DNA of 64,000 nucleotides. Source: a virus. Taxonomy: Duplodnaviria; Caudoviricetes. Numbering within the stretch: the first letter of the stretch is position 1; the number at the start of each line of letters is the position of its first letter. The notes under the pieces were generated by a model, which worked only from the letters and a program-made list of their open reading frames with translations, made no database searches and had not been told where the DNA came from. Positions 3-30,186 of this stretch are shown piece after piece. The stretch lies in the IMG/VR virus record IMGVR_UViG_3300037722_001090. One strand, given 5' to 3'. A program made the translations under genes and the position numbers.

Positions 3-3000
3 GGATTAGTAGATCACGCATTAGGTGCTGCAACTATGTCTCCAACTGGTCGTGGACCATTTACTGAGATTCCAATTAAGGCATTTGAAGCTGCGTCATT
101 AGCTTATACAAAACTATCCGATATAACAGGACTAACTGACTGGGCTAAATGGCAAGATAGAGTAGCTCCTGGATCTACAGGCATTGGTATTATGGCTCCT
201 GCAGCAACAGCTACCGGTCTTTACTTTATGGGTGAAAAAATGTATCAGCATGGACCTGACTTTATCGGAGGTACAATAGATAAAGCTGGCAGGAAAATGC
301 TACAGCATCCACTTATGAGGGCTGCAGCTAGGCCTGAAGCGTACAAGGGCGCTTTAGCCCGAGGACCAGTTGAAAATCTATTGTCTTATGTTATTAAGAA
401 TCCAAAGAAAGGAATCTTTGGGTTAGCAATGCTACCATCAATTCCATTTCTACCCGGGTTCTTTGGTTCAGATAAGAACTATGCTGAGAAGAAAGCTGAA
501 TATAAAGGAGAGAAAGAAGTTGCTATTCGTAAATATCGAGGATGGTTACTATCATCTTCTCCTTTTGAGGGCGGAAGAGTAAGATCATGGCGTAGACATT
601 CACTAAATCTTATCGAAAGTGATTTTGAAAACAGAGGCGTTGTCTATCCTTCATTCACAGATCGCTTTATGCATAATGCATCTCTTGGTATGTATAAACC
701 TAATATACTAGAAGACTACCACGGAGATGCACAGCCCGTATATAAATCCTCTCCTTGGGGAACAAACGTACCTCTTGTTGGTCCAATTATAGCAGGAACA
801 ATTGGCAAGCTAATTGGAACCAAAACATATCACACACCAGGAGAGTATGCACCAAGAGAAGTTCAGGAGTATGCTGGTGACGGAGCAAACCATGATCAGG
901 AATCTGGTCTATCTAGAAGTGTAGAGATGGGTACAGTCAAGAAGTTATTTGGTGATGATCAGAATAAAACTGGATACATGATAGGACTACAGGATCCATC
1001 GTCACTTAATTCTTTAGCTTCTAGGTTTGCAGACAGCTTAGGAGACCTATCTGGTTTCCGTGGATTCTCACTACAAACAACGTATGAAAAAATGGCAGGC
1101 AAGAACCTACCAGATAAATATACACCATATGCACAAGATAGTAGCCAAATGTATAGTCCAGCTGAACAGATGTGGCAATACAATCTTGGTGATATTACTG
1201 TAGTCGGTGGCGAGTTTATGCGTCGTATATTACAGAACTCAGAGAAAAAATGGGAAGTTAACGATATTCCCAATGAGTTATTTGGTGTTAGCTGGATTCC
1301 TCAAGCCGATGACCAAAGAGGTACAACTAAAGACTTAACTCACGGGACTACCTTTAATAAAGTAGATATGGGTTGGCTATATGGATCTAGAAAAGGATGG
1401 GAATTCTTATATCCAGGAGAAGCAAAAGGAGACATGGAATCCTATAGTGCTCCTCTTAAAACAGAGATTCTTCAGCAACTAGCTCCTTATTCAGCTAAAT
1501 TTAATGAAGCAGCTAAAGAGACATACGGTCAAGCTATAGGGGGTCAGTTAAGTCCAAAGCAAGAACAAAGATTCTATGAAACACTAGATCAAGTATCACA
1601 AGTAAAACAACAACTATATGCTACAGCTGGTGAGTATTCATTTGCACTTGATACAGAAGCAGAATCTGGTATTGTAGATACTGTACAAGATGATGGTTCT
1701 TTTAGTATGAAAGGTAAAAACTATAGGCTTGCAGGTGTATCTTTACATGAGGCAGATATAAGAGCTAGGCTTTTACAAAAGAACGAGTATAATAGTGCAC
1801 AGGCGCTTGCAGATGATGTAGCATCAATCAGAGAAAGAACTGCTCAAATCATAAGTAAACACTTAGGTCCGGGCAGAGAGGTTAGTTTTAATAAGGCCAC
1901 AGCTACTATGTTACCTTCCGAGACAGAGTCTGGTATAGAAGTTCAAATAGATAGCCTTACAGAGGAACTGTGGAGCGCTGGTGCACCTTTTGCGAACACT
2001 GGCAACCTTGCTTCCCATAATATAGCACAAGACAGAGATGGTATTATGAGCAGGGTATCGGCTGCATATTGGGATGGGCTTACTGCTACTAACTCTTATT
2101 GGAATAAAAAGCTAATATCTAAACGTGACTACTTAGATAATTATACAACTAATCAGGTATATAATAGAGAAGTTAAACTTTGGACTAGACCTATAGAACA
2201 TATTGTTAAGCCATTTCTAGCATCTACAGTTCATAATCTTACAGGCATAGATTTCATACCATCATTCACTAAAGAAAGAAGAGCTAATCAGCAATACTGG
2301 GATGTAGTAAAGTATATAAAATATAAAATGTTATCTGGCAGAGCTAAAGATGAAGGTGACATGGAATCGGCTGCTTTCTTTGAGTCTCAATGGAGAAGCA
2401 CAATGATTGGTGCTGACCCTACAGATAGTAGTATGAAAGACGTACTTAATGCTCTTCCTGTAAATGAAAGACAATATTTTAATAACTTTGCTAATGAACC
2501 GGATCCAGAAAAAAGAAAAGAGATCTTTGGGTATTTACCAGAACAAGCAAAGAGACTTTACTCTAGTATATGGATGAGGAAAGCTGCAGCTGCATCTAAT
2601 GACCAGCAACTACTTGCAAACTGGAGTAAGCTTCAAGAATCTGAAGGATGGGATTTATCTGAAGACGAAGAAGCTGAGTATGCTAATGAAACAGGTGGAC
2701 GTGCCTCTAAGGCTGATTGGGCTAGAGCTAAGTATGTTCAGTCATATGCACAGAAAAGAAACCTTCCTGGAGCAGAATGGTCTGGATGGAATGAGAGCGT
2801 TGACATAAATAACGTTCAATTATTAGCATTACAAGAAGATGGAGAGAACGTACAAGATTACGGATTCTTCGATAGTAATATAAGACAAGCAATTTATGAT
2901 GATTACGCATATGCCGCCGCTACAAGCTACGAATCAATGTCTGTATCAGCTAATGTAATTATGGGCGATATAACACCGATGCTAATGGAAGACTCTGTTA

Positions 3001-3143
3001 TGTCTGCATATGCGACACCGACGTCATCTATGTCACCAATTAGAGAAGTAAATATAGAAACTAATGGCTTTGCAAGAATACTTGATAAGTTAAACAATTT
3101 TGGAAGTGAAATACTAGATGATTATTTTACGGACCCTTACTAA
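3..3143 (+). CDS. Large virion protein in tape-measure position, 5'-truncated by window edge; contains a degenerate SNase-like OB-fold
   Basis: Frame is open from position 3 (GLVDHALGAATM) to TAA 3143; Gly/Ala-rich hydrophobic helices; segment GIVDTVQDDGSF...YRLAGVSLHE...LTEELWSAGA resembles the thermonuclease fold; precedes the hub and baseplate genes. Confidence 0.6.
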   Translation, partial: GLVDHALGAATMSPTGRGPFTEIPIKAFEAASLAYTKLSDITGLTDWAKWQDRVAPGSTGIGIMAPAATATGLYFMGEKMYQHGPDFIGGTIDKAGRKMLQHPLMRAAARPEAYKGALARGPVENLLSYVIKNPKKGIFGLAMLPSIPFLPGFFGSDKNYAEKKAEYKGEKEVAIRKYRGWLLSSSPFEGGRVRSWRRHSLNLIESDFENRGVVYPSFTDRFMHNASLGMYKPNILEDYHGDAQPVYKSSPWGTNVPLVGPIIAGTIGKLIGTKTYHTPGEYAPREVQEYAGDGANHDQESGLSRSVEMGTVKKLFGDDQNKTGYMIGLQDPSSLNSLASRFADSLGDLSGFRGFSLQTTYEKMAGKNLPDKYTPYAQDSSQMYSPAEQMWQYNLGDITVVGGEFMRRILQNSEKKWEVNDIPNELFGVSWIPQADDQRGTTKDLTHGTTFNKVDMGWLYGSRKGWEFLYPGEAKGDMESYSAPLKTEILQQLAPYSAKFNEAAKETYGQAIGGQLSPKQEQRFYETLDQVSQVKQQLYATAGEYSFALDTEAESGIVDTVQDDGSFSMKGKNYRLAGVSLHEADIRARLLQKNEYNSAQALADDVASIRERTAQIISKHLGPGREVSFNKATATMLPSETESGIEVQIDSLTEELWSAGAPFANTGNLASHNIAQDRDGIMSRVSAAYWDGLTATNSYWNKKLISKRDYLDNYTTNQVYNREVKLWTRPIEHIVKPFLASTVHNLTGIDFIPSFTKERRANQQYWDVVKYIKYKMLSGRAKDEGDMESAAFFESQWRSTMIGADPTDSSMKDVLNALPVNERQYFNNFANEPDPEKRKEIFGYLPEQAKRLYSSIWMRKAAAASNDQQLLANWSKLQESEGWDLSEDEEAEYANETGGRASKADWARAKYVQSYAQKRNLPGAEWSGWNESVDINNVQLLALQEDGENVQDYGFFDSNIRQAIYDDYAYAAATSYESMSVSANVIMGDITPMLMEDSVMSAYATPTSSMSPIREVNIETNGFARILDKLNNFGSEILDDYFTDPY

Positions 3144-3156
3144 ACGGAGTTAACAA

Positions 3157-6100
3157 ATGGCAAACAATCCATACTATGAAGAAAATAGCGGCTTTGGTAG
3201 TGTATTAAAAGGTGCATCTTTTGCTGGCGCAGCTGGTGCATCTTATATGGCATATAAGAACCCTGAAGCTACTACCCGTGTATTTAATCGTGTAGTTAAT
3301 TCTGTTGCACCACTAAAAGCACCTGAGCTTAATCCATATCAAAGCAACATAGTTAGTGCTAGAGAGGCAATCTTCAGTACTATGGAAGCCAGAAATATAC
3401 GTAGAGTAGCTTTAGATAAAGATATGCAAGCAAGAGCTTTACAGACAATCGGTAATGTAAATAACTGGGGTACTGTAAGTGCTGTAGGTGCTGGTATAAA
3501 AGGTGGCAAATCTGATTCATTTAAAAGCCTAACTGATATTCTAGACATAGAAGGTAATGAAATAGGGACAAAAATACATAACGCACTAGAGAAGAGATTT
3601 AATTCTAAAATCGATGCTCCTAAATTTAGTGGAACAAGAGGAACCTGGAAGATAGCAGGAGAAGATTTGTCTATTGATTTCTCTAAAAAAGGACTAGATT
3701 CAGGACTAGGAAATTCATGGTTCAAGCGCGTTGGAGAGTCTTATTATGCTTCACCTTATCAGTCTAAAATGGCTAATCGTGGCGGAGGGAAGCTTGGATA
3801 TGATGTAATGAGTCCAAATGAATTTGTATTAAATGTGCTACAAGAAGAAAATGCTGGGAGTGGAAGACTGGCATATGTAGAGAGTCCTACTAAGTTTAGG
3901 AACGCATATGAAAAGGTAATAGGAGAGAAAGTTACTGGACTAAGTGGACATGACGATGCTGTTAAGTATGCTGTTCAGCAAGTACGTAAAGAAATAGAGT
4001 TAGGATCTAATGCTAGTGTTAGCAATGTAAGAACTATGCAAAAGGCTTTAAAGAAAGTATTTAATACAGATACTATGTTTGTAGAAACTGACCCAGTAAA
4101 GCTTGGCTTATTTGGCAGTGAAGTTCGCGTAGAAGAATATTCTAGATATATACTTGGTAATACAGAACCTGAATTTAAAGGTGTAGGTTCAAACCGCGTA
4201 GGCAGAAACATGAATAGTCTTACAGGAGGAAGCGTAAACATAGAAGGTAATGCACTTAAAGTAGCATATAATATTCCTCATGATGCAAGAACTGATAGTT
4301 CTTTAATTAGGATTGTTAATGGTAGTGGCGCTACGTTGAAAAGTAAAAATGCTACATTTATGCAAAAAATGATGTCTCTGTTTGGTGGATATAGGCTTGG
4401 ACAAGATCCTTCATCTGAATTTGCATGGGCTGTTAGACCTACTGTTCTTCCTGTTATTGCGGAAGGAGATAAGTCTATGAAGGGTGCTTTATGGGCAGAT
4501 GATAATACCGTTATTAGAAAAAATGGCACTCAGGGTATTTCTATGGGAAAGGAATATTTCAGAGGAACAGGAACAAAAAGAATTGAAGCACACAGACTTG
4601 AAACATTAAGGCATATGTCTTTTATTGACGACACTAAGATTACTGAAGCTGCTGCTTCAAGCTCAGATTATGTAAAGGGTAAAATATATTCTCAGCAAAA
4701 TAAAGGCATTTATAATATGACAATGGCTCTTAACCCGTTTTCTGAAGAGTCTATTCAAGTAAGTTCAGGTATGAGTAAGCATATGAAAGTTCTTATTCCA
4801 AAAACAGCTACTGTGGACACAATTGCACTTAAAGGAGAAGAATCGTATAGGAGGTCGCTACTTACACTAATGGATGCAAACGGTGTATTAGATAAGGAAT
4901 CATTTACTATAAAAGAAATAATGGAAAGTAAAGCTTTATCAGAAAGAGTTAGTACTGGTCAATCCAAAATTAAGATAGGAAGAGGGACATATCTAGGCAG
5001 AAAGAACATAGGTATGGAAATATCTAATGCTGAAGACTTTTACTCTACATTTGAAAGAGACGGAGAGATTATTAAAGCAAAAGTAGATATGTATATAGAC
5101 AGTACAGACTTTAATCAAATGGTCGAATCAAATCAAAGAATGATGGGTGAAGGACATAAGCATGCAGGAGGAGTTAAATATATAGCTAAGGCCATGGATG
5201 ACCCTGCTAAAGTTGCACTTACTGGTATAAGAGCCCGTGGAGCTTATGCAGTTGGCGATGACGGATTACTTAATAGTTTATATGCAAGTGCAGGACTAGG
5301 TAATAAGCAAGAAGCTACTATTTCTCTTGGTATGTTTAAAAAAACATTCCCTAAGATTTCTAATAACAGCCTTCTTCTTGGTAAAGATTCACCTGAACTA
5401 TTACACTTTACACAATCTGCACTTGGATGGCAATCCTTACAAAGTAGCATGGATATAACATTAAGTAAAAATGCCGCTGATCATTTTGTCGGTAAATACG
5501 TAAATGATGCATCAAAAGTATTAGGCAATCAAGATTATTATACTGGAAGAGGTGCATCTAAAAAGTTTAGCTTTAGTAAGGCTATGCGAGATGGAGCAAT
5601 ATCTTTTACTCAAAGAACAGAATCAGATGCTGCATTTGCACAGCAATATCAAGACACTGTACAGGTGCTTGGTACTGCGCGAAGAGAATGGGGTAATAAT
5701 CGTAAAGTTGCACACATAGAAAGCTTCTCTACGACTAATGCTAAAGATGCTGCTAAAGTTATAGATAATCAAATTGAAGCAATAGACAATATGGGCAAGC
5801 TTGCAAAAGGTGAATATGCTGTAAGGCTATTTAATAAACAGGTAGATGCAAAAGAGCTTGGAGAACAAGCCTTAGTTAGGACAAGAGTATCACAAGGTAG
5901 TAGTGCTGGTCTTGGATCGACAAAAGCACTCACAATGGGTATTCTTGGAGGACTTCAACCTCAGGAACAAAACTGGCTAGCTCTTGGTGGTGAATTTAAT
6001 AAGATGCGTATTTCATGGAGAGATATGTATCACTTTACAGACAAGGCAGATATACTAAGAGATATTTCAGTTAGAAGCTTAACAGATGCAGATACTAGCG

Positions 6101-8646
6101 CAACTATGATTAAGCTAATGAGTGACTCTGCTGTAGGGCATAATGTTACTTCTGCTGTTAATGCATTTGAGAAGAAATATGGTAAAATTCCAAAACTAAA
6201 AAAGACAGAAGAGATTTTGGAAATGATAGGTGGTGATGCCGCTATGGTTCCAGGTGCTATTAGAGATCCTGAATTCTTAGCAACAAAAAGCTTCTTAGGT
6301 AATAAAAAGAATGAGTTCGGTTTTATGGTCGAAATGGGTGAGCGTAATGTTTATATTCCAGGTAGAGATGTTTGGAAAGGATATGCAACTGATGAGGGGA
6401 TGGCTACATTTGATTCTTTATTTGCAGAAACTCATAACTTACTTTTGAATAAAGCTCTAGGATCGAACATACATCAAGATAGAGATGAGTACCAAAATTG
6501 GGTTAAAAGAATAATCAATGAAACAGGAAGCTCAAAAGAAGGACTACAAAGAACAATTTCATTATCTATTGACCATGCAGTTGCTGCAAAACATATAGAA
6601 GATCCATCGTTTATTCATAATAAAATTATGATTGGTGCTATGGAGAGCTGGAAAGGTAATGCAGACAAGAAGTTAATTCCTGGATATGTAGCAAAAGCAG
6701 AAGCTCTAGAAAATACATTTGGTAATATAGCTAAAATCGGAGAAAAAGATTTTAGTTCAAGTATTAAACAGCTTATAACTGACACTAAGACAATAGCTAG
6801 TAGCCCTGGAAGCAGACAGACAATGCAAGAGGTTCTTACCTCACAATATGGTGAAGATCATTTTCTACAAAAGTATGCAAATAGGATGAGTGCAAACATG
6901 GACAAGGAAGGTGTAGCCAGTCTTGTTAAGGATATTACAACGGATCATGTTGCTAGTAGTAAGCTACTTATGAGCAAAATAAAAGAATATGCATCAACAG
7001 GGAATGAGTCTTTATTTGGAGAGATAGACACGCTTGTAGGAGGTGCACATAAGATTTTTGCCGTTAGACATCCTACACTTTATACTGGATCTTATTCAGG
7101 ATTAATAGCTCTTATTGATAGTCAAATTGAAGGAACACAAAAAATAGCAATAGCACACAGAGCTAGTAAAAATATGGCGTCGGACTGGGACGGAGATACA
7201 ATTAACTATGTTGACCTTAGATCTAAACTGGGAAGACAAAAAGCATTGAATCTTATTAATACGGATCAGAAAATTGCATATGGTGTAATGAGTTCTAAAG
7301 TGCAAGACAGAATGACTGGAATTTTAACTGGCAAAGGAACTAATGCTCCATCCGAGGCCCTTGCTTTTTTTAACTCACTAGACTCCCCTGCAGCACTAAA
7401 TACAGTAGCTAAAAATATTTTACATGATGCTCCTGGCTCAACAGCTATTTCATCGTATTTTACTAAAGCAATGACCGGTCAATTTAATATCTCTGCAATG
7501 GAAACAAAAAACTATATAAGAGATTTATCTGATAGTAAAAACTTATCACAAGAGCATATGAAAGAGCTAGGTCACTACTTTGGAGTAATGGCATCTAAGA
7601 ACTCTGAGCAGGAAGTAATCTCAGCTAAGCATGCAGAGACATGGCTTAAGAATATGAACAAAAGTGAAAGTAAGATGAACTATCTTACTAATTTAATAGG
7701 CGCTCAATCTGGACAAGAACAAATAGCGGAGTCTATTAGAGAGCTTGGATCAGTACATCCTATTGCTCAGATGGCAGCAATGAACGCCAAAGGTAAAGAT
7801 AATGAGAAGTTTGCTGGTATGGTTTCTGACTTTATGGATTTTAAGGTAGGATGGAAACAGCTTGAGCAGCCAAGATTCGAAACTATGTGGGAAGGACTAG
7901 GTCTTGAAAAATCTCATGGAGTTAATACCTCAGCAGCTTGGGACATGTACGACTCTTGGTTAAAAGAAGGTGAACATATTTTTGGTAATAAAATGGAATC
8001 TTCTGTTGCCGCTGGTATATCAGAACTCAGCTATTTAGAAGTTACTAAGCAGGCAATGTTTGATAAGAGATCTTCTGCAAGTGAAAGTATAGAGGCCATG
8101 TTTAGCCGTGCATTAGAGTTTATGAAAATGAGCGATAATGATAGGGCTGGAGATGCTGCAATGGGCGTATTAGATAAGCTCGGATATAGGAAAACAGCAC
8201 TACAGATGCTCACTTTACATGAGCAACAATCAAATATGGCACAAGCAACTCGCAAGATAGCTGGCTTTGATACAGTATCTAAAGCAGCACAGTGGATGGT
8301 AGAAAAACCTGTTAGATTAGCTGGAGCTGTAGGTATTGGCTTATTAGGCATGACTGCAATTAACCTACTAAGCGGAGATGGTGGCCTTGAAGATCCAAAT
8401 GATTTACCTAGTGTTAGTAATCCGGCATTTACAGGCGGTGGTGGAAATGGTATGATGAATACACATGGAGTCCAGCCACACGTAGGCGTAAACGCTAATG
8501 TAAACTTATTAACAGACAGTAACGATAATCCACAAAGTGCACTTAGTTACATTTCTAATATGTTTGGCTATAGTCAGGGCAGCGTTGTATCTGTTATGCA
8601 TGATGGTGAAAACCCATACAAAAAAGATATGATGTATTATAATTGA
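3157..8646 (+). CDS. Putative virion-packaged single-chain two-barrel (DPBB) DNA-dependent RNA polymerase, 1829 aa
   Basis: Beta'-like signature AVRHPTLY (7066)...IEG...AIAH...NMASDWDGD (7183-7197) followed by TINYVDLRSKLGRQKALNLI; upstream KEGLQR (6535) switch-2-like motif; candidate beta-barrel lysines GHKHAGGVKY (5158, 5176); GGAG RBS. Confidence 0.8.
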   Translation: MANNPYYEENSGFGSVLKGASFAGAAGASYMAYKNPEATTRVFNRVVNSVAPLKAPELNPYQSNIVSAREAIFSTMEARNIRRVALDKDMQARALQTIGNVNNWGTVSAVGAGIKGGKSDSFKSLTDILDIEGNEIGTKIHNALEKRFNSKIDAPKFSGTRGTWKIAGEDLSIDFSKKGLDSGLGNSWFKRVGESYYASPYQSKMANRGGGKLGYDVMSPNEFVLNVLQEENAGSGRLAYVESPTKFRNAYEKVIGEKVTGLSGHDDAVKYAVQQVRKEIELGSNASVSNVRTMQKALKKVFNTDTMFVETDPVKLGLFGSEVRVEEYSRYILGNTEPEFKGVGSNRVGRNMNSLTGGSVNIEGNALKVAYNIPHDARTDSSLIRIVNGSGATLKSKNATFMQKMMSLFGGYRLGQDPSSEFAWAVRPTVLPVIAEGDKSMKGALWADDNTVIRKNGTQGISMGKEYFRGTGTKRIEAHRLETLRHMSFIDDTKITEAAASSSDYVKGKIYSQQNKGIYNMTMALNPFSEESIQVSSGMSKHMKVLIPKTATVDTIALKGEESYRRSLLTLMDANGVLDKESFTIKEIMESKALSERVSTGQSKIKIGRGTYLGRKNIGMEISNAEDFYSTFERDGEIIKAKVDMYIDSTDFNQMVESNQRMMGEGHKHAGGVKYIAKAMDDPAKVALTGIRARGAYAVGDDGLLNSLYASAGLGNKQEATISLGMFKKTFPKISNNSLLLGKDSPELLHFTQSALGWQSLQSSMDITLSKNAADHFVGKYVNDASKVLGNQDYYTGRGASKKFSFSKAMRDGAISFTQRTESDAAFAQQYQDTVQVLGTARREWGNNRKVAHIESFSTTNAKDAAKVIDNQIEAIDNMGKLAKGEYAVRLFNKQVDAKELGEQALVRTRVSQGSSAGLGSTKALTMGILGGLQPQEQNWLALGGEFNKMRISWRDMYHFTDKADILRDISVRSLTDADTSATMIKLMSDSAVGHNVTSAVNAFEKKYGKIPKLKKTEEILEMIGGDAAMVPGAIRDPEFLATKSFLGNKKNEFGFMVEMGERNVYIPGRDVWKGYATDEGMATFDSLFAETHNLLLNKALGSNIHQDRDEYQNWVKRIINETGSSKEGLQRTISLSIDHAVAAKHIEDPSFIHNKIMIGAMESWKGNADKKLIPGYVAKAEALENTFGNIAKIGEKDFSSSIKQLITDTKTIASSPGSRQTMQEVLTSQYGEDHFLQKYANRMSANMDKEGVASLVKDITTDHVASSKLLMSKIKEYASTGNESLFGEIDTLVGGAHKIFAVRHPTLYTGSYSGLIALIDSQIEGTQKIAIAHRASKNMASDWDGDTINYVDLRSKLGRQKALNLINTDQKIAYGVMSSKVQDRMTGILTGKGTNAPSEALAFFNSLDSPAALNTVAKNILHDAPGSTAISSYFTKAMTGQFNISAMETKNYIRDLSDSKNLSQEHMKELGHYFGVMASKNSEQEVISAKHAETWLKNMNKSESKMNYLTNLIGAQSGQEQIAESIRELGSVHPIAQMAAMNAKGKDNEKFAGMVSDFMDFKVGWKQLEQPRFETMWEGLGLEKSHGVNTSAAWDMYDSWLKEGEHIFGNKMESSVAAGISELSYLEVTKQAMFDKRSSASESIEAMFSRALEFMKMSDNDRAGDAAMGVLDKLGYRKTALQMLTLHEQQSNMAQATRKIAGFDTVSKAAQWMVEKPVRLAGAVGIGLLGMTAINLLSGDGGLEDPNDLPSVSNPAFTGGGGNGMMNTHGVQPHVGVNANVNLLTDSNDNPQSALSYISNMFGYSQGSVVSVMHDGENPYKKDMMYYN

Positions 8647-8653
8647 GGTAGAT

Positions 8654-11600
8654 ATGGCAATTTCTAATAAAGAGTTTATTGATGTGCTTAAAGCAGAAGG
8701 CTTATGGCCACCACAGGCAAATGCTGAAGCAGCATATGGAGCAGTTGAGTTTCCAGTAGGAAAACTTAAAATTGATGGAGATGCCTCTTTTACATCTATT
8801 TATGTAATGGACGGAGATACCATTGAGTTACATAAGCCCGGATATGTATTTAGTACAACAGGAGATCATGGCACAGTACCCGCCGAAGGCATGGATGGCA
8901 TGGCAACCTCTCTTCGTTATTATGGCTTAGATACAAAAGAGACAGCAAAAGAGGGCACAGGTAAAGCTGCAGAGCCATATGCTAATTGGCAAACTAGGGC
9001 AAACTTAGCCTTATTTAAATATGCAGAAAGAACAGGTAAAAATGTTGATGTTACTGGATACAATCAAGATGCTTACAAGAGAACAGTTGCTGCAATAAAT
9101 ATTGATGGTACGGATGTAGCTGATCTCTTTGTACGAAATGGTATATCTGCCGCAGGTACCGCCGCAGAAGCAGGCTTTGTACCTGAAGGGGGGATAACTG
9201 TTCGCTCACTGCAAGAATCAATGAATGAGGCAGCAACTAAAGGCTGGGGTCTATGGAATAAAAATCAAATTTATGATGTCTTAAGAGATGTAAATAAAGA
9301 GACTGAATATCTTGATGGTTATATTAATGATCGATTTGGTAAAGCTAAAAGCATGACAGACGATACTGTTAAGCTTGGAGACGTATATCTTGATATACCT
9401 CCTACACACATAAGTATTAATCAGTTAAGAACATCATATTCTACACCACAATTTGGTGGCGAATCAAAGCCAACATCTACAAGTACAGCGCGAACAACTA
9501 TAAAGCTAAACCTTATTTTTAATGGTGAAGACTCAGTAAACGATGATTTTAAAAGAATCTATTGGCAGTTTATCTATTGTCCAATTAACTTACTGTATTC
9601 AAAAGATATATACGAGAAGGTTGTTTCAGATAATCCTTATATAGCTAGGATGAATACTGCCACAATTAACACTGAAGAATCGTCTTCTTCTAAGTCATCT
9701 TCGTATTTTATCCCTGTAACTATGGATAGTTGGACCGTATATACTATTGAGGGTCATCCAGGGTCTATTGGATGTACAATACAGCTATCTATCTTTAACT
9801 ATTCTGCATACTTTGAAGGTGCAGGTAATGGCGTTGAATACTATACATATAGTGATAATCCAGGAAAGCATGGTAATGCAGTTAGATACACTAAGCACCT
9901 AGAAGAAGCTATTCACCCATATAACCAATATATCATGAAGCACCTCGGTAATAGCATTCAGCACTTTGATGCATCAGATAGTCGCACTCTTATTTTTAAG
10001 GTTGAAGATAATAAATCTAGATTTGAAGGTAAACAAGAAGATATTAATGAGGATGTTTCAGATTTATCTGAATATCTAAAAGTTATACTTGAATCAGAAG
10101 TTGATGAATTAATGGTTAATGGTTCTGTAACTTTTCATAATAACTTTGCATGGTTACCAATTATAGGATATACGCAACCAACAGCACAGTATATTGGTCC
10201 TGGTGAAACCAATATGTCACTAAGTATTAGAACTAAAAACAATAAAACCATATCAGGACTATTAGCAACATTTGGTGAAATGGTTCTTGATAGAACTAAA
10301 CATACATACTATGATGATAGATACTTAGTGTCCAACTCGCTGTCTAGGCTATGTAAGGCTTCTGTTTGTTCACTACGTAATATCTCAATTACAAACGTAG
10401 ATCATCACCCAGGATGGTCCGATATTAATATTCAGCTCTCTAAGTCTTCCTATGCAGATCATCAGGATGAAGTAAACCCAGCTGCAGAATTTGATGAATA
10501 TTTTGGACTACAAAGGTTGATTAAAGCTGCAAATGTAGATGAGGTTATGGAGGCTCTTGAAAGAGAACTTAAACTAGCTGACATGACAGATATATCTCTT
10601 CCTGCAGAAGATGATTTGCTAGGACAAATGTGTATACTCTCTGGTATAATAAATGCACATTCATACATTAGTGATGAAGCATACCTTGGGTACAATGAAA
10701 TACTTTCTAATATACGTGCTTTTAAAGCAACTATTAATGATAAAGACATGAAAGAGCTTGGATTTTCTAAGCCTCTTATGGGAGACATAAAAAGTCTAGA
10801 GGTAAAAGGTACGGACATAATTGATCGTATGTTCATTCAGTCTCTACCTATATCTGTAAAATCTGACCCTAAACAAATGAAAGCAATAGTTGATTTCGAA
10901 ACATACTATAATGCTAAGAAAAAAGCAGGTGTTGTTAATGAATTTGATTCTTTTGAAAGCGCACTTAGAGGAGATAATTCTAAAGAGGGTTTTGAATTAA
11001 GAGCAGAGATGATAGATAGGTATTTACCTCTTGATGAAATGATAGATATGACAGGTACTAAAAATAAAATAGTAGATGTAAATAAACACCTATTTAATGC
11101 CTGGGAAGAGTATTGGGGAGATAGACATACAGTAAGGTCGCTAAGCAGTGTATATATAAAAGATTTATTAGCTAGTGGTGTGGACACATCAGTATATGAT
11201 GAAGAAATGGAAAATATAGTATATAGGATACTTAGATCCATATCTAATGAAGGCATGATGTTAAGTTACCAGAAGGCTTGGAATCCGCTAGCTCTTTCAA
11301 TGGCTCGTGGTCATGCAATTGTTTTTAAGTTTACTGGTACAATATTAGAAGCACAAATAATTAAAGCAGCCCTTAGGGTTGGAGATGAGACATCATCTAT
11401 AATTGGAGAGGCAGCTAGTTTTGGTACGCATGGATCTAAAGCAAGAAAGTTTTTTAGTTTACAAAACAATGTTAAATATCCATCTATTTCAGTAAAGTTA
11501 ACTTGTCATAATAAGGATGTTGCATATAGTGAATATAGCACTAGTATGTCAGAGGCATCAAAAGAGGCATCATGGTCTTTAGCTACTGCGTTTAGAGCTA

Positions 11601-14600
11601 AAAAAAGTAATGATGCTATATCTAGCTTTACGGGTAATGATAAGATTAACCAATCAGAAGTAAGTAAAGAGCTAGCTCTTTTGCGCGAGGATATGGAAGA
11701 TGTTGCTTTTAGCAGAATACCTATGCCTCATGCAGCACATAGATACTTTCCTTTTATAGATCAGTATATTAAACATAGCGAGCTTTTCTCTGCAAGCATG
11801 GGTGATTGGTTTAGAAATACAGCAGAAGACGATCCTTATTCATTTTTTGAAGAAGTAAGCGAAACTGTTGAAAATTCAGTATCACCGCTCATGAACAATA
11901 AGGGGTGGACATCAACTTATCTTCAAAAAAGATATGGAAATACATATATAAACAAAATCAATGAAGATATTAATGACCCATCTAAAATAATGGAAGCACT
12001 TTCTTTACCTGTATCATCGAAGGATTCAAGCGATAGAAATAAAGATGGATCACTTGCAAGACTTAAAGACGGTAAGATGGATACATCTATGCCTAAATTT
12101 AGTAAAGATATGGTAACAGACTTGCTTGGTAACTATAAGTATGATGAAGACATTGACAATAAGCCATATAGTGGAACTGTTCATTCAGGAGTATTTATTG
12201 CAGGATTCTATGATGGTGCAAAAGATGGTAAGAGAGCAAAAGATTTTAGACAAAATACATATGATACACATTCTATATGGCTTGATAGTGACGGTGCAAT
12301 AAGCGGTCTTTATAATAAGCTAAATAGAAATCAATTAGTACCAAACGGAAACATGTTAGTAGAGGCTTCAGAAGCTCGCGAAACTAATGTTGCCTCAACA
12401 TTAATTAATGGTGTAGGAAGAAGTTTAGCTGGTCCAATAGATACATCAGTTAAGTATGCTGGTGTATTTAAATCAACATCACTTATAATGGCGCTTAATA
12501 AAAATCCTAAGATGTTCATGATAGAAACAGATAGGATACCTCCAGCACAATTTGCTCTTGGTCCAGATAGTGGACTTAATATTGTTCAGGCTGATGAAAA
12601 AATATTGACTATGTTTGTTAGAGCTATTACATCTATACATAAAGGTGGCAGTGCTACAGATTATAAGAATATTGGATGGTCAGATCGTGCATCTAGACAT
12701 TATGCTAAGGTTTTAGTTGCAGAAATTAAAACTAAATTAAGAGCAAGTGGATATTCAGACAGTTGTATTTACTATGCTAAGCAATCAGAAGTTTCTGCTT
12801 TTGTAGCACAGAAAGAAGCTATATCATATGAGGAAGGTGCACCAGAAGAAATCTTTATGAGGGCACTAAGATTAAGAGCTGACAGTAATTTGCCTGTAGC
12901 TGACTTTGTTGATGATCATACAAAAAATATAGTTGCAAGACAATCTATGGCTTCATTAATGTCAACTACATGTTTAGAGAATGCTTTCCCTACTTATAAG
13001 CTATACATTATTGAAGAAGATACATCTGACATTAGGTATTTTTCACTAGACGATTATTATGATCTAAGAACAGCACAAGACTTAATGATTATAAAATCAA
13101 AAGATAATCCAGTACATATTCTAAAAGGTAGAATAATAGTAGATCCAAGATACATAACTGTTACAGATAAGGTAAAACAAAAAGTATCAAAATACAATGA
13201 AGATAGTGAACATGAACTAAATGAGCCATCATTACAGTTTATTGATACTAGGCTTGAAAACTACTTCAATAAAGGTTTTACACCTTTAAGAGAAGGTATG
13301 CGAGTTTGCGTTAAGCTTGGATATCATACTGATCCAAGAATGCTTGATACAATATTTATTGGTACTATTACTGGATTAAAAGGTAACATGACTTCTGGTG
13401 TATATGAACTTGAAGCAAAAGGTGATGGAAGAGAATTATTATCTCCTCCTAGTCCAGAGCTAAGGCCTAACGTAAGTGGTAAGAACTTTGCAGAGGTAAT
13501 ATCAAAGATACTTAGAACTAATCCAAGTATTATTCACTTTGGTAAAACATATGGATCTTTCATTGAAAAATTCTCTAGAGATCACTATACATTACTTGCA
13601 ATAGCTAAGAATGGACTTCTGCAAGGAAGCTCAATGGCAGGTGGTGGACTAATGGGCACAATTGCAGTATCATTGTCAATGGCATCTCCACAGAGAGCTA
13701 TGTATAAGGTTGGAGCTAGAGTAATTGCTGGAATAGTAGGTATAGGTGCTGGTGGACTTATGGCTCAACTATACAGCCCAGTACCATATAGTTTAATACA
13801 GAAAAGTAGAGATAAGTTTAAGCACGAAGCATTAGCGCAGTATAGTGGACATATATTCAAAGGGCTTTGGTTTTCAGAGGAGTTTAAAGCTGCAAACTTT
13901 TCACAAGCAAAAAAATGGATTCAAGGACATACATTCGATCCAGCAAAAGCGGCAAGAGAGGTTGCAGAGATATCTTACAATACACTTAAGTATGGTAATG
14001 ATCCTATTGATGACAATATATTAGCAGTTGATATTTGGCAAACAGGAATGACTCCATGGAAAACATTCAATATGCCTGTTAATGGAGCAAGAACCGTATG
14101 GGACATTCTTGTAGATATAAAAAGAATGTATCCTAACTTTGCACTAGACATTAGGCCATATGGCAATAGATCAACATTATTTATGGGGCCTTATGAGTCT
14201 GAAATGTGGAGAACAGATGACCCTCTACAGGCAATGGCTCCACAGTTATATCAAATGAGCAACGGAGCACCTTGGGCAGATGGACAGGCTTACGCTGAGC
14301 ATACTAAGGCTGCTATTGAAAATATGGTTACTAGAGATCAGTTTCATAATGCTACTCCAAATACACGTAATATAGCGCCTAGAGAGCCATTCCAAAGAAC
14401 ACACTTAGTGTCTTCCTTTAGCGATATAATTATGAATGGAGTTAGATCTACACCATATAGGGGATGGAACGATGTAATAGTTTCTTACTCTAAAGATCCA
14501 GATGATGATGATTCGCCTCCAATTGTAAATCAAGTTGTTAATGCACAGCTAGATCCTAAAGCTAAAAGGACAAAGTATGTAAACCTTGACTGGACAAATG

Positions 14601-16069
14601 ATAAGCAAATGGCTAATGCATATGCTTTAGGTTTCCTTAAAGAAGGTGTTGGTAAAATGTACGGAGGGACACTAAGCATTAGAGGTAACTCTAAAGTTGA
14701 ACCACACGATAAAGTATATATTTGCGATTCAGTTAATAAAATGTTTGGATGGATAGAAGTAGAAACAGTAATACATAAGCTAGACATGAATACTGGATTT
14801 ACTACACATATTGTTCCAAACATGGTATGTTCAATTAATGATGATGCCTATACAACAACAAGTCAGTTGTTCCGTAAGAAAATGCTTGGCAGTGTAGCTA
14901 AATTAATTTTACATACAGCAGCCGCTTATCCTGCAGGTATTGCACTGACTGCCGTGTTAGCGCCAGTATTAGGCTCTGCCGCATTTATAGTCGGTATTGT
15001 ACTTGGTACAGCTGCTCTTGGATATACTGTGTATCAATCAGCCAGTGCAATAAAAAGTAAAGCTGAAGCTATTATGACCGAGGCTACAGCTAACGGACTT
15101 ATAAAAGAAGAACAGGAGTATATTCAGCATAAGCTTCAAAACATACTAATGGTGTCTACTATGAAGTCATCTTTCGATTTGGGTATATTCTCACACTATG
15201 TATTGAAGTTTACTGGCGGACCAGGTAACATTAAAAGGAATGTTCTTGCATACACAACTAATACGGCAGAAAGAGCAGCGCTTATAGAAAAGGTTTCAGC
15301 GGGATCTAAGGCAAGGTTTGCAGTTGCAAGCAATTATATAGCTAAGCTCAGCAATAAAACTGGTGTTACCTCTACATCAAAAATGAAGAAAATACTAGAT
15401 GATGCAGCTAAAAAAATGGGAAGAGCTCCAATTAACTTTGACGACTACGAAGTAAAAATGGCTGCTGCTGTAACACCAGAAGAAAGAGTTCTTCAAAGAA
15501 AGATGTTAGCTATAGAAATTGAAGATTTAGTTAAAGAAGCAGCTAATGATTTTTCTGACGATGTTAAGACTAAAATTACAAGCACAATAAACGATCCTGC
15601 TGCACTAGATAAACTAACAAACTCTTCAGTCATTGAACCTGAGATACCAAAAGCAGGAGATGGTAAGGTTAATACTAGAGCTGCCGCAGCTAAGCCATTT
15701 AAGCCAATAGCAACCAAAGCTAATCTAAAAATAGCAGCTGGTGGATTCTTAGCCTTCCTAGCACTTGGAGCCGAGTTATTACCTTTAGGTTTTGAAACTA
15801 TTGCTATGAATGCAATGCTTAAGTCTAATGTAATATTTTGTTCACCATTAACACACAAGTCAAGTCAAATGATGACTGGACTAGAAGGCTATATTAATCA
15901 GTCTTCTTATCTACACCTAGGAAGTATGATTATTCATGCTAAGGACTTTATGAATGATGCTATTGATTCTGTTAGGAATTGGGACCAGGTAGTACAAATA
16001 GGTGACTCTTCATATTCTAAACTTACAAATGTGTTCGGTAGATCAGTTGATGATCAGGGAGGTATGTAA
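8654..16069 (+). CDS. Baseplate hub-like (T4 gp27/Mu gp44/P2 gpD-type) protein with N-terminal thermonuclease (SNase) domain, 2471 aa
   Basis: N-terminus has DGDT (D53,D55), LRYYGLDTKE (R88,D93,E96), DAYKR (R143), DVADLFVRNG; later hub-type strands MRVCVKLGY...IFIGTITGL...LEAKGDG and GTLSIRGNSKVEPHDKVYI...IEVETVIHKLDMNTGFTTHI; immediately upstream of spike/gp25/gpJ genes. Confidence 0.7.
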   Translation: MAISNKEFIDVLKAEGLWPPQANAEAAYGAVEFPVGKLKIDGDASFTSIYVMDGDTIELHKPGYVFSTTGDHGTVPAEGMDGMATSLRYYGLDTKETAKEGTGKAAEPYANWQTRANLALFKYAERTGKNVDVTGYNQDAYKRTVAAINIDGTDVADLFVRNGISAAGTAAEAGFVPEGGITVRSLQESMNEAATKGWGLWNKNQIYDVLRDVNKETEYLDGYINDRFGKAKSMTDDTVKLGDVYLDIPPTHISINQLRTSYSTPQFGGESKPTSTSTARTTIKLNLIFNGEDSVNDDFKRIYWQFIYCPINLLYSKDIYEKVVSDNPYIARMNTATINTEESSSSKSSSYFIPVTMDSWTVYTIEGHPGSIGCTIQLSIFNYSAYFEGAGNGVEYYTYSDNPGKHGNAVRYTKHLEEAIHPYNQYIMKHLGNSIQHFDASDSRTLIFKVEDNKSRFEGKQEDINEDVSDLSEYLKVILESEVDELMVNGSVTFHNNFAWLPIIGYTQPTAQYIGPGETNMSLSIRTKNNKTISGLLATFGEMVLDRTKHTYYDDRYLVSNSLSRLCKASVCSLRNISITNVDHHPGWSDINIQLSKSSYADHQDEVNPAAEFDEYFGLQRLIKAANVDEVMEALERELKLADMTDISLPAEDDLLGQMCILSGIINAHSYISDEAYLGYNEILSNIRAFKATINDKDMKELGFSKPLMGDIKSLEVKGTDIIDRMFIQSLPISVKSDPKQMKAIVDFETYYNAKKKAGVVNEFDSFESALRGDNSKEGFELRAEMIDRYLPLDEMIDMTGTKNKIVDVNKHLFNAWEEYWGDRHTVRSLSSVYIKDLLASGVDTSVYDEEMENIVYRILRSISNEGMMLSYQKAWNPLALSMARGHAIVFKFTGTILEAQIIKAALRVGDETSSIIGEAASFGTHGSKARKFFSLQNNVKYPSISVKLTCHNKDVAYSEYSTSMSEASKEASWSLATAFRAKKSNDAISSFTGNDKINQSEVSKELALLREDMEDVAFSRIPMPHAAHRYFPFIDQYIKHSELFSASMGDWFRNTAEDDPYSFFEEVSETVENSVSPLMNNKGWTSTYLQKRYGNTYINKINEDINDPSKIMEALSLPVSSKDSSDRNKDGSLARLKDGKMDTSMPKFSKDMVTDLLGNYKYDEDIDNKPYSGTVHSGVFIAGFYDGAKDGKRAKDFRQNTYDTHSIWLDSDGAISGLYNKLNRNQLVPNGNMLVEASEARETNVASTLINGVGRSLAGPIDTSVKYAGVFKSTSLIMALNKNPKMFMIETDRIPPAQFALGPDSGLNIVQADEKILTMFVRAITSIHKGGSATDYKNIGWSDRASRHYAKVLVAEIKTKLRASGYSDSCIYYAKQSEVSAFVAQKEAISYEEGAPEEIFMRALRLRADSNLPVADFVDDHTKNIVARQSMASLMSTTCLENAFPTYKLYIIEEDTSDIRYFSLDDYYDLRTAQDLMIIKSKDNPVHILKGRIIVDPRYITVTDKVKQKVSKYNEDSEHELNEPSLQFIDTRLENYFNKGFTPLREGMRVCVKLGYHTDPRMLDTIFIGTITGLKGNMTSGVYELEAKGDGRELLSPPSPELRPNVSGKNFAEVISKILRTNPSIIHFGKTYGSFIEKFSRDHYTLLAIAKNGLLQGSSMAGGGLMGTIAVSLSMASPQRAMYKVGARVIAGIVGIGAGGLMAQLYSPVPYSLIQKSRDKFKHEALAQYSGHIFKGLWFSEEFKAANFSQAKKWIQGHTFDPAKAAREVAEISYNTLKYGNDPIDDNILAVDIWQTGMTPWKTFNMPVNGARTVWDILVDIKRMYPNFALDIRPYGNRSTLFMGPYESEMWRTDDPLQAMAPQLYQMSNGAPWADGQAYAEHTKAAIENMVTRDQFHNATPNTRNIAPREPFQRTHLVSSFSDIIMNGVRSTPYRGWNDVIVSYSKDPDDDDSPPIVNQVVNAQLDPKAKRTKYVNLDWTNDKQMANAYALGFLKEGVGKMYGGTLSIRGNSKVEPHDKVYICDSVNKMFGWIEVETVIHKLDMNTGFTTHIVPNMVCSINDDAYTTTSQLFRKKMLGSVAKLILHTAAAYPAGIALTAVLAPVLGSAAFIVGIVLGTAALGYTVYQSASAIKSKAEAIMTEATANGLIKEEQEYIQHKLQNILMVSTMKSSFDLGIFSHYVLKFTGGPGNIKRNVLAYTTNTAERAALIEKVSAGSKARFAVASNYIAKLSNKTGVTSTSKMKKILDDAAKKMGRAPINFDDYEVKMAAAVTPEERVLQRKMLAIEIEDLVKEAANDFSDDVKTKITSTINDPAALDKLTNSSVIEPEIPKAGDGKVNTRAAAAKPFKPIATKANLKIAAGGFLAFLALGAELLPLGFETIAMNAMLKSNVIFCSPLTHKSSQMMTGLEGYINQSSYLHLGSMIIHAKDFMNDAIDSVRNWDQVVQIGDSSYSKLTNVFGRSVDDQGGM

Positions 16070-17274: not shown

Positions 17275-18489
17275 ATGGCTACCTACAAAGATAAGCAAGA
17301 CAGAATTTTAAAGGTTATGTCAGAGAGAGCTGGATTTTCTAGCCTAGTACCTGGCACAAAAGGCTATCAACTAGCAGAGGCGTTTGCATATGAACAAATG
17401 TTACAAGAGTCTGAAATTGAAGAGTTTACTAGAAAAAATAGTATCTTAACTGCTAAAAAGCAAGAGCTTGATGATATTGGTGAGAATTTTTTTAACGTTA
17501 AGAGACTTGGAAATATTAAACCTTTTATTACGTCATCAATGAAAGCACTTAAGTTTTACGTTGATACAGCTCAGTCATTTGGCCAAATAAATGTCATAAA
17601 GCAGGCAGGCATTGAAATACCTCAAGACATTATAATCCCAGAAGGTGTAATTATAAGTGGCACAAAAGATGGTATTGATTATAAGTTTAGAGTTTCAAAA
17701 ACAACGATATTACCTAAAGATGATAATGTAGCATACGTGCAAGCAGAGTTAATGCAAGGTCCACTTGCACAGATACCAGCGAACATATTAAAGATGCATA
17801 GTTTTACTAAATATACACAAGCAACAAGTAATATGCTTAAGGTTACAAATCCAGTTCCAGTTATGAATGGAAGGCAATCAGAGAGTGATGATAACTATAG
17901 GTTTAGAGTCTCTAATGCATTAAGTGCATTTCCAAGAACAAACACAACAGCTATACATCAATTACTAACTGAACTTCCAGCTATATCTAACGTATATATA
18001 GAGCCATCATCTAATGGTGGTGGAACATTTACTGTATATGTACAAGGTACAACACCAATTACTGGGGATGAAATAATCCGTGAAGCAGAGATGGTTCTTG
18101 AGCGAGTTATTAGTCCATGGATAGTATCTTATACTGTAGTTAAGCCAAGTTATATTGGTATTCAGGCATCTATAGATATGGTTCTTAGAGATAGTTTTAA
18201 CTCCAATATTACGTCTTTAATATCTCAAAAGGTAACTAATTATCTTGATAACTTTGATGGGGATACATTTTATATAAACTCCATATTAAGTCTTGTACAA
18301 GGGATGCATCAAGATATACTAGATGTATCATTTAACTATGTTAGGGTTTATTCTGGGTCAGAAGATATAAGATCTTATGAGGAATTAGACTTTACCGTAA
18401 ATCCAAACCCCATAATTAGCATTAGTATTAAAGAGAAGTTAATTTCAGAGCCTATCTCTAATCCAATTACATTAACTATAACGGTTTAA
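17275..18489 (+). CDS. Baseplate J-like wedge protein
   Basis: IIIPEGVIISG...YKFRV; VTNPVPVMNGRQSESDDNYRFRV (E-S-D-x-x-Y-R-x-R motif); GTFTVYV. Confidence 0.85.
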   Translation: MATYKDKQDRILKVMSERAGFSSLVPGTKGYQLAEAFAYEQMLQESEIEEFTRKNSILTAKKQELDDIGENFFNVKRLGNIKPFITSSMKALKFYVDTAQSFGQINVIKQAGIEIPQDIIIPEGVIISGTKDGIDYKFRVSKTTILPKDDNVAYVQAELMQGPLAQIPANILKMHSFTKYTQATSNMLKVTNPVPVMNGRQSESDDNYRFRVSNALSAFPRTNTTAIHQLLTELPAISNVYIEPSSNGGGTFTVYVQGTTPITGDEIIREAEMVLERVISPWIVSYTVVKPSYIGIQASIDMVLRDSFNSNITSLISQKVTNYLDNFDGDTFYINSILSLVQGMHQDILDVSFNYVRVYSGSEDIRSYEELDFTVNPNPIISISIKEKLISEPISNPITLTITV

Positions 18490-29051: not shown

Positions 29052-29330
29052 ATGAATAACGATTATTATGTAGAGCAAGACTTTAACTTGGATGCACAGT
29101 TAATTCAACCAAGTATTAAGACACAGGTACTTAATGGTATAAAACAAAGAATTACAGATCAATATTTAAGTACTGAAAACAAAGATATATTAGCTGTATT
29201 AGATGCGCAGACACAGATAATAGAAGATGCATATAAGATAGATATGTATAAGTTCCAATTCAAGCTATTAATTAACATCTTAAATAAAGAGCTTGATAAT
29301 ATAAAAACAATCCTACTATATGAAATGTAA
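29052..29330 (+). CDS. Hypothetical helical protein
   Basis: 92-aa ORF in operon. Confidence 0.4.
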   Translation: MNNDYYVEQDFNLDAQLIQPSIKTQVLNGIKQRITDQYLSTENKDILAVLDAQTQIIEDAYKIDMYKFQFKLLINILNKELDNIKTILLYEM

Positions 29331-30186
29331 TAAAATGATACAGGAATTACTAGAAGATCTATTTAAAAAAACATCTAAACCGCAAAAAGAACATAAGGAC
29401 CGATTCTATCCAACACAATCATCAGTCTCAGTAAGTCACAAGTCTTATAAGAAAGTAGAAGGTAAGTGCTTAAGGGCAGCTTATTATAATTGTATTGCTG
29501 CAGACTCAGAAGATACATTTAGTCTAAATAAAGAAATTATATTTGAGCTAGGTGATTATGTTGAGAAGATGGTGCTAGACAAGCTTGATCGTAAAGGGGT
29601 ACTCGTAAGTAGAGATACGAAGTTCGAGATTAGCACATATAAAATAAGCGGTAAGTTAGATGCTATTATTTTAGATAGTAATGGCAAAAAAGTTGGCGTT
29701 GAAATTAAAAGCATTGGTGGTAATAATAAATATGCAACAAATGCAATCTATGGAAGTCAATGGAATTTACCAGAACCTAAATGGCAGAACTTATTTCAAA
29801 CCTTAGTATACTGTTATGCCTTTCGAGATGAGATAGATAGATTTATATTATTTTATATCAGAAGAGATACAGGTGAAATTAAGGAATTTGAAATTTCTAT
29901 ACTGCCAAAAAAAGGCAAGCTATATCCTGTAATAGACGGTAAGATTGAAGAGAGATATACAGTAAACGATATATTAGATAGATACACTATTCTTAATAGA
30001 TATATAGAGAAAAAAGAAACCCCTCCTAGAGAATTCCAGCATACATACAAAAAAGAACTTATTGATACTTACGTAAAATTTGGTATAATGTCTAAGTACC
30101 AAGCAGATAAATATAAAGAAATACCCTTTGGTGACTTTGAATGCAGATTCTGTAGCTATTCAAAACGCTGCCTAATTGATAAGTGA
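29320..30186 (+). CDS. Cas4-like PD-(D/E)XK exonuclease with 4-Cys cluster
   Basis: N-terminal CLRAAYY, ISGKLDAII, VEIKS, QTLVY, C-terminal CRFCSYSKRC. Confidence 0.85.
   Translation: MKCNKMIQELLEDLFKKTSKPQKEHKDRFYPTQSSVSVSHKSYKKVEGKCLRAAYYNCIAADSEDTFSLNKEIIFELGDYVEKMVLDKLDRKGVLVSRDTKFEISTYKISGKLDAIILDSNGKKVGVEIKSIGGNNKYATNAIYGSQWNLPEPKWQNLFQTLVYCYAFRDEIDRFILFYIRRDTGEIKEFEISILPKKGKLYPVIDGKIEERYTVNDILDRYTILNRYIEKKETPPREFQHTYKKELIDTYVKFGIMSKYQADKYKEIPFGDFECRFCSYSKRCLIDK

Follow-up and report, generated by a model that had tools for sequence, protein, structure and literature searches.

A probable dead nuclease-like domain in a gp145-type virion protein of a contractile-tailed phage

The window analysed here is a stretch of 64,000 nucleotides from a tailed phage (IMG/VR record IMGVR_UViG_3300037722_001090). 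It opens within a giant gene, open reading frame 1 (ORF1), which encodes a protein of the type of gp145 of phage 0305phi8-36 and is followed by two further giant genes, ORF2 and ORF3. We consider it likely that positions 1650-2042 encode a dead staphylococcal-nuclease-like (SN-like) domain, an ancestral and often lost module of the gp145-type virion protein that is most probably non-enzymatic, and that the three giant genes represent a conserved gene order. An earlier reading made from the letters alone (the sequence-only reading) had pointed to this part of ORF1, and the peptide that it quoted is indeed encoded there: positions 1668-1995 of the plus strand translate into GIVDTVQDDGSFSMKGKNYRLAGVSLHE ... 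LTEELWSAGAPFA, corresponding to ORF1 residues 545-653 when numbered from the ATG at position 36. ORF1 is recorded elsewhere as a gene call of 1,183 residues, and its full-length relatives contain 1,940-2,275 residues. The features of ORF1 discussed below are the following.

3..3143, plus strand: ORF1, C-terminal 1,046 codons of a gp145-type virion protein, open at its 5' end with the gene start upstream of the window.
1632..2117, plus strand: whole variable module, consisting of the SN-like core and two C-terminal helices (match to the domain hidden Markov model (HMM), E 5e-53).
1650..2042, plus strand: SN-like domain core, ORF1 residues 539-669, delimited with AlphaFold2 (AF2), VIA-align, Foldseek and hhalign.
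1722..1751, plus strand: YRLAGVSLHE, strand 3 and former active-site stretch, with R564, S569 and E572 at the R35, D40 and E43 positions in the hhalign register.
1755..1775, plus strand: DIRARLL, start of an extra helix (572-582) that takes the place of the omega-loop of staphylococcal nuclease (SNase), from the AF2 secondary structure.

Two separate AF2 models were computed. The first covered a piece of 181 residues (window 1608-2150) aligned with 27 relatives (alignment A7, 28 sequences), and the second all 1,035 residues with an alignment of 60 sequences. Both contained the same domain at residues 539-669, a beta-barrel with helices of the SN-like type, so that the fold claimed for residues ~545-655 by the sequence-only reading is the one predicted. 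The per-residue confidence (pLDDT) of the domain was above 90 in both (93-98 over the core); the 181-residue model was confident at piece residues 11-135, with block means of 84-97 and a dip to 71 at 101-110. Its elements follow each other as four short strands, a helix, a long helix, two single strands, a helix and two further helices. In both models the topology was that of SNase: a five-stranded oligonucleotide/oligosaccharide-binding (OB) barrel with helices after strands 3 and 5 and a C-terminal helix.

Comparison of the 181-residue model with the VIA-align library of 48,161 representative chains placed Tudor-SN first (2wac_B, Z 8.4, 2.5 A over 99 residues), together with human Tudor-SN (3bdl_A, Z 8.2) and staphylococcal nuclease itself (1sta_A, Z 7.7, 107 of 137 residues aligned). 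Ranks 1-15 were held only by Tudor-SN, SNase and extended-Tudor SN-like domains, with Z falling from 8.4 to 3.9, and the first entries of other kinds, generic OB folds included, appeared at Z 3.7 or lower. The same matches were obtained for residues 539-669 of the whole-protein model (2wac_B 8.7, 3bdl_A 8.7, 1sta_A 7.7). No Tudor barrel, inserted or attached, was seen in the model, and only the SN part of 2wac and 3bdl aligned with it (99-106 residues). When Foldseek was run against the PDB, staphylococcal nuclease occupied almost all top rows, with a target-normalised template-modelling score of 0.45-0.56 and E-values that were weak, from 0.027 upward; with the whole-protein model, too, SNase came first in Foldseek. 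In BFVD the two best matches were pieces of giant phage proteins, followed by thermonucleases; one BFVD match, A7KUR9_2, carries a 0305phi8-36-type accession and is probably gp145.

A link to SNase was also found at the level of sequence profiles. As template for hhalign we used five Pfam-verified phage SNase domains (PF00565), one from ORF3 of the window and four from related records. The profile of the close clade matched them with a probability of 40% (P 3e-4), and a 50-sequence profile that included divergent copies with 84% (P 7.6e-6). In this register RLAGVSxxE lies on RxxGiDTxE, and the G-x-L-N-x-x-L-x-x-G-A helix on its SNase counterpart. The reversed template gave 0.1% (P 0.48), and the profile comparison thus bears out the fold proposed by the sequence-only reading. 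Pfam SNase (gathering score 21 bits) did not match ORF1 or its 109-residue piece at E up to 1, and ORF1 homologues taken from five related records gave no match to it either. For the copy of Moorella phage MTATph1, no Pfam family scored better than SNase, whose score stayed under the threshold (E 0.032, 15.1 bits). Nothing usable was obtained from Pfam, PHROGs or PDB sequence searches with ORF1, the 109-residue piece or the family profiles, nor did ORF1 or ORF2 have a match in the ESM Atlas. The short forms of the domain in Moorella phage MTATph1 and 0305phi8-36 show an SNase-type Y-x-x-[LI]-x-A-V-V-Y...N-[LI]-N-x-x-L-I motif.

We then examined the residues that would be needed for catalysis, counting columns over 52 relatives in the hhalign register.

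R35 position: R564 in ORF1; R in 20 and K in 14 of the 52.
D40 position: S569 in ORF1; S in 23, N in 12, G in 8 and D in 2 of the 52.
T41 position: L570 in ORF1; T in 18, L in 12 and M in 7 of the 52.
E43 position: E572 in ORF1; E in 15 of the 52.

The D21 position has no Asp in the window copy and none in any of the 52 relatives; where SNase has DGDT, the ORF1 domain has D-D-G-S-F. No Arg was aligned with R87 in either hhalign register. The Ca2+ ligands D21, D40 and T41 are thus lost, and the catalytic set of R35, E43 and R87 is incomplete. This agrees with the sequence-only reading, which had noted that R and E (R564 and E572) are kept here and that DGDT, the equivalent of D40 and the Y-G-R87 arginine are lost. 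As judged from the alignments, the canonical nuclease chemistry is gone from the ORF1 domain. Sites conserved throughout the family are chiefly Gly and hydrophobic residues (G554, F556, G567, L580, G613, L645, G649 and G669); a mostly basic character (65-75% of relatives) is confined to K561 and R564. R576, which lies in the extra helix, is invariant within the close clade (alignment A7). The window copy is acidic, with an isoelectric point (pI) of 4.8 and a net charge of -8 (family median pI 5.7), and nucleic-acid binding by it does not appear to be favoured. Within the close clade the domain evolves faster than the core, with a median identity of 37.7% vs 49.1%.

The distribution of the domain was followed through the ORF1 family. 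An exhaustive HMMER search with the profile of alignment A4 found at least 1,050 representatives at E up to 1e-3. Membership of ORF1 in the gp145-type family follows from homology over the C-terminal ~1,000 residues and from its slot between the tail chaperones and the gene in the tape-measure slot. About 25 close representatives matched end to end, and many distant ones matched in pieces that skip the domain stretch. In a six-sequence alignment residues ~535-690 formed a block missing from three related records, L004, L005 and the TAG-recoded L003, and the variable module is present or missing as one block among the relatives, being a gap in L004 and L005 (alignment A3) and absent in L003. 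The L003 homologue (9401-12900) contains 18 in-frame TAG codons and is otherwise open, TAG being probably reassigned in this record. We considered that the domain might be an insertion confined to the closest clade, and this was ruled out when HMM searches and a tree revealed divergent copies in cultured phages and in three clades besides that one. The domain HMM recovered strong copies in the close clade; in ~26 distant representatives it recovered weaker ones (E 1e-13 to 1e-3), whose relative position was unchanged. On a FastTree phylogeny computed from the core only of 143 representatives, 61 carried the domain at the same site; they formed four clades (37, 15, 7 and 2 tips) with clades lacking the domain in between, requiring a minimum of 4 state changes. 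Because the site is identical everywhere, the simpler reading is that the SN-like domain is an ancestral module of the gp145-type family that was lost several times.

Cultured phages belong to the same family. Searches with tblastn from ORF1 matched ME3_35, Edson 0930 and Moorella CDS0026, and Edson 0930 is 37% identical to ORF145 of 0305phi8-36 over its last 739 residues (4e-109), so that the homology link between ORF1 and ORF145 runs through Bacillus phage Edson. One gene order is found in Acinetobacter phage ME3, Moorella phage MTATph1, Bacillus phage Edson and 0305phi8-36, namely tail chaperones, an ORF1-like protein, a second giant protein and the hub. In gp145, Edson 0930 and Moorella CDS0026 the domain has a shorter form, which is missing the extra helices; the SNase-like pattern of this form can be seen by eye, and the catalytic positions have been lost there too. 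Both gp145 and gp146 of 0305phi8-36 were identified as virion proteins by mass spectrometry (GenBank record). Other domains occur in the family as well: in alignment A8, intein/Hint domains are present in 6 of 28 members, three of them with LAGLIDADG, and REase_MTES_1575 / DUF559 endonuclease domains in 4 of 28.

The part of ORF1 in the window (36-3140, 1,035 residues) was modelled as a compact, mostly helical body (pLDDT 86.6, predicted template-modelling score 0.85). Outside the SN-like domain, neither Foldseek nor VIA-align gave a convincing PDB fold match for this C-terminal body. As regards tape-measure traits, the comparison covers the window part, the N-terminal part lying outside the window: no 19-residue segment reached a hydropathy of 1.5, the model was compact, and no tape-measure Pfam family was found among 28 ORF1 family members. 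The N-termini of the full-length homologues in records L002 (7664-8863) and L001 (7655-8854) contain invariant D14-x-E16, N223..D227 and H335-x4-D340, a pattern of the DEDDh exonuclease type. It is a pattern of motifs in a region upstream of the window, and Pfam did not detect an exonuclease in either homologue.

The genes downstream of ORF1 are the following.

3157..8646, plus strand: ORF2, 1,829 residues, in the tape-measure slot, with two-barrel RNA polymerase (RNAP)-type motifs and one C-terminal hydrophobic segment.
5152-5178 (GHKHAGGVK, residue 666) and 7066-7197 (RHPTLY...DWDGD), plus strand: RNAP-type sequence motifs of ORF2.
8654..16069, plus strand: ORF3, 2,471 residues, hub-type (PHROG matches), with an N-terminal SNase (~8786-9298) and three hydrophobic segments.
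17275..18489, plus strand: baseplate wedge gene of the gp6/gpJ type (phrog_6, E 4.1e-23), marking the contractile-tail baseplate module downstream.

In ORF2, R1304-x-P1306 and D1343-x-D1345-x-D1347 are invariant across four homologues, with GHKxAGGVK upstream, and these motifs fit a single-chain two-barrel RNAP. Neither sequence nor profile searches of the phage collection and the PDB gave a match to ORF2. The SNase of ORF3 scored 26.1 bits in Pfam against the cut-off of 21 (E 1.2e-5), and its DGDT, R..D-T-x-E and K-R motifs are complete; a word-indexed homologue search with this piece found nothing. By hydropathy, strongly hydrophobic segments number none in the window part of ORF1, one in ORF2 and three in ORF3. 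The RNA fold at the ORF1/ORF2 junction was unremarkable. A tail sheath gene lies upstream in record L002, and together with the wedge gene it indicates the tail module of a contractile-tailed phage; a crAss-like podovirus context was ruled out on the same two grounds. Further along, amid tail and fibre genes, an ORF of 288 residues (29320-30186) matches Cas4 / PD-(D/E)XK exonuclease PHROGs (phrog_1706, 6.8e-20).

The sequence-only reading had the RNAP gene bracketed by SNase domains. Its components stand, since the SN-like ORF1 domain, the RNAP-type motifs of ORF2 and the ORF3 SNase are all present, and distant as well as cultured relatives keep the three genes in this order. A functional bracket is not supported, as the parts occur separately among the relatives. 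Within the close clade, RxP..DxDGD is present in all five loci with enough downstream sequence and the N-terminal hub SNase in four of them. Outside it, gp145 of 0305phi8-36 and its Moorella MTATph1 counterpart have the ORF1 domain without an RxP..DxDxD motif in the next gene; in L004 and L005 the domain is absent, yet the gene that follows can be aligned with ORF2 through the DxDxD columns; ME3 has neither. As the parts are separate outside the close clade, shared descent within a single clade is the best reading of their joint presence in this phage, and the adjacency of the ORF1 domain to an RNAP-like gene looks like inheritance rather than a purpose-built three-gene machine.

Several further observations were made on the neighbouring genes. 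The hub SNase shifts its location, being N-terminal in the window and in L002, L013 and L017, internal in L004 (20726-21175) and in ME3_37 (record L010, 23183-23590), near the C-terminus in L005 (L009, from the same record), or absent. The hub N-terminus of L005 resembles by eye a GH108-type lysozyme motif. In record L024, and also in L025, L026, L027 and L039, a Pfam-type SNase forms the C-terminal part of an ORF of 466 residues (L024 5523-6923, SNase match 6441-6896) that sits between a sheath-size gene and the ORF1 homologue, which indicates that nuclease domains recur on different tail-module proteins. Edson, a B. cereus phage (record L012, 12631-20178), carries RYPT...DHDGD in GAKEdson_0920, a gene of 2,515 residues in the tape-measure slot; this motif is missing in gp146 of 0305phi8-36, ME3_36 and Moorella CDS0027.

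Four other explanations have to be weighed against the dead, non-enzymatic module. That proposed by the sequence-only reading takes the domain for an inactive nucleic-acid-binding OB fold and ORF1 for a DNA-binding guide, ejected with the ORF2 RNAP and the ORF3 nuclease as one system. Binding of nucleic acids is frequent among SN-like and OB folds, a basic residue mostly stands at K561 and R564, and the RNAP motif and hub SNase recur together in the close clade; moreover, the DxE...N..D...HxxxxD exonuclease-type motifs at the N-terminus of full-length relatives suggest that ORF1 may handle nucleic acid. We nevertheless regard this explanation as unlikely, given the acidity of the domain in this phage and the family median pI, the loss of the residues of the SNase nucleotide pocket, the occurrence of the domain without RNAP motifs (0305phi8-36, Moorella) and of RNAP-like genes without the domain (L004, L005), and a hub SNase that varies in position or is absent. 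A related possibility, to which we give still less weight and hold to be a long shot, is that ORF1 is an injected protein processing nucleic-acid ends, in which the dead SN-like domain would hold the substrate for an N-terminal DEDDh-type exonuclease, gripping the leading DNA end or the nascent RNA beside a tail-delivered RNAP. If this were true, the gp145 family would be widespread phage pilot proteins with a nucleic-acid function.

That the domain is still a nuclease, with a non-canonical set of residues, appears very improbable: R564 and E572 are present here, and the close clade keeps D574, R576 and E635, but across the family E572 is found in 15/52, R576 in 26/52 and E635 in 31/52, and the D21, D40 and R87 positions are lost everywhere. 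Equally hard to credit is that the match reflects no relationship to SNase, only a generic OB barrel or an artefact of the modelling. It would account for Foldseek E-values of 0.027 and above and for the lack of a Pfam SNase match in the window copy, but not for a single fold family among the top 15 structure matches with a gap to generic OB folds, for helices after strands 3 and 5 as in SNase, for a correct profile register with a clean reversed control, or for the SNase-type motif visible in the Moorella and 0305phi8-36 short forms. Some points do weigh against the interpretation as a dead ancestral module. According to VIA-align's own warning, best Z values of 7-8 are common, and as values near 8 are common, weight has to be placed on the agreement of two programs, on the one fold family at the top and on the gap beneath it. 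The largely basic character of K561 and R564 would allow some phosphate binding. Finally, the tree was midpoint-rooted and its root state is ambiguous, making repeated gain formally possible.

On the reading as a dead module, the domain lies within the C-terminal body of ORF1, which is large, compact and for the most part helical; ORF1 is a gp145-type protein and its phage a contractile-tailed one like 0305phi8-36. The domain probably descends from an SNase-type nuclease, is enlarged in this clade by extra helices, and has lost the canonical set of Ca2+-binding and catalytic residues. Most likely it acts as a non-enzymatic module for binding or structure, either packed against the remainder of ORF1 or holding a partner; contacts with a protein ligand or within ORF1 itself are favoured over nucleic acid. 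The neighbourhood would then be the conserved order of chaperone, gp145, tape-measure slot and hub and not a dedicated three-part device. This is the first domain to be recognised in the C-terminal 1,000 residues of a very widespread, uncharacterised virion protein family, which comprises at least 1,050 representative clusters and belongs to large contractile-tailed phages. As a fossil nuclease and not an enzyme, it tempers the idea of a tail-module RNAP flanked by a matched pair of nucleases. The cultured phages 0305phi8-36, Edson, WH1 and Moorella MTATph1 are available for testing the domain and the role of gp145, and Edson, with RxP..DxDGD in its tape-measure-slot gene, could serve as a laboratory model for a tail-module RNAP.

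Among known proteins, Tudor-SN and the extended-Tudor SN-like domains are well known binding scaffolds with the SNase fold. Tudor-SN (SND1/p100; PDB 2wac, 3bdl, 4qmg) and the extended-Tudor SN-like domains were the best structural matches of the ORF1 domain (Z 8.4-8.7, rmsd 2.5-3.2 A, 99-106 residues). Unlike Tudor-SN, the ORF1 domain has no Tudor insert, belongs to a prokaryotic virus and carries extra helices after strand 3, and PDB sequence and profile searches detected no sequence similarity between the two. With staphylococcal nuclease and the thermonucleases (PF00565; 1sta) it shares the topology and the register of the R-x-x-x-x-D-T-x-E strand and of the G-x-N-x-x-L-x-x-G-A helix; it differs from these enzymes in the missing Ca2+ ligands and R87, in its acidity and in being embedded in a protein of ~2,000 residues. 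No mention of an SN-like domain in gp145-type phage proteins was found in the searchable literature. The three-gene unit, which the sequence-only reading had put forward as its best candidate for an undescribed system, has precedents in both its layout and its RNAP. The gp145/gp146/gp147 slot was laid out in 2007 for 0305phi8-36, where orf146 is the tape measure and orf147 a gp27-type hub (Hardies et al., PMC2147016). Slot and order are the same as in the window, and gp145 has a short dead SN-like domain at ~1350-1500; this domain is without extra helices, gp146 lacks RxP..DxDxD, and gp147 bears wall-degrading domains instead of an SNase. A tape-measure-fused virion RNAP has been shown in gp96 of Thermus phage P23-45 (PMC10770324). 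The term nuclease is absent from that paper in a term search, the genes next to gp96 not having been examined, and no sequence match between gp96 and ORF2 was found. P23-45 is a siphovirus, in contrast to the contractile-tailed phage described here; its gp96 nevertheless provides a precedent for a DxDGD two-barrel RNAP that occupies the tape-measure slot and is delivered from the tail (PMC10770324).

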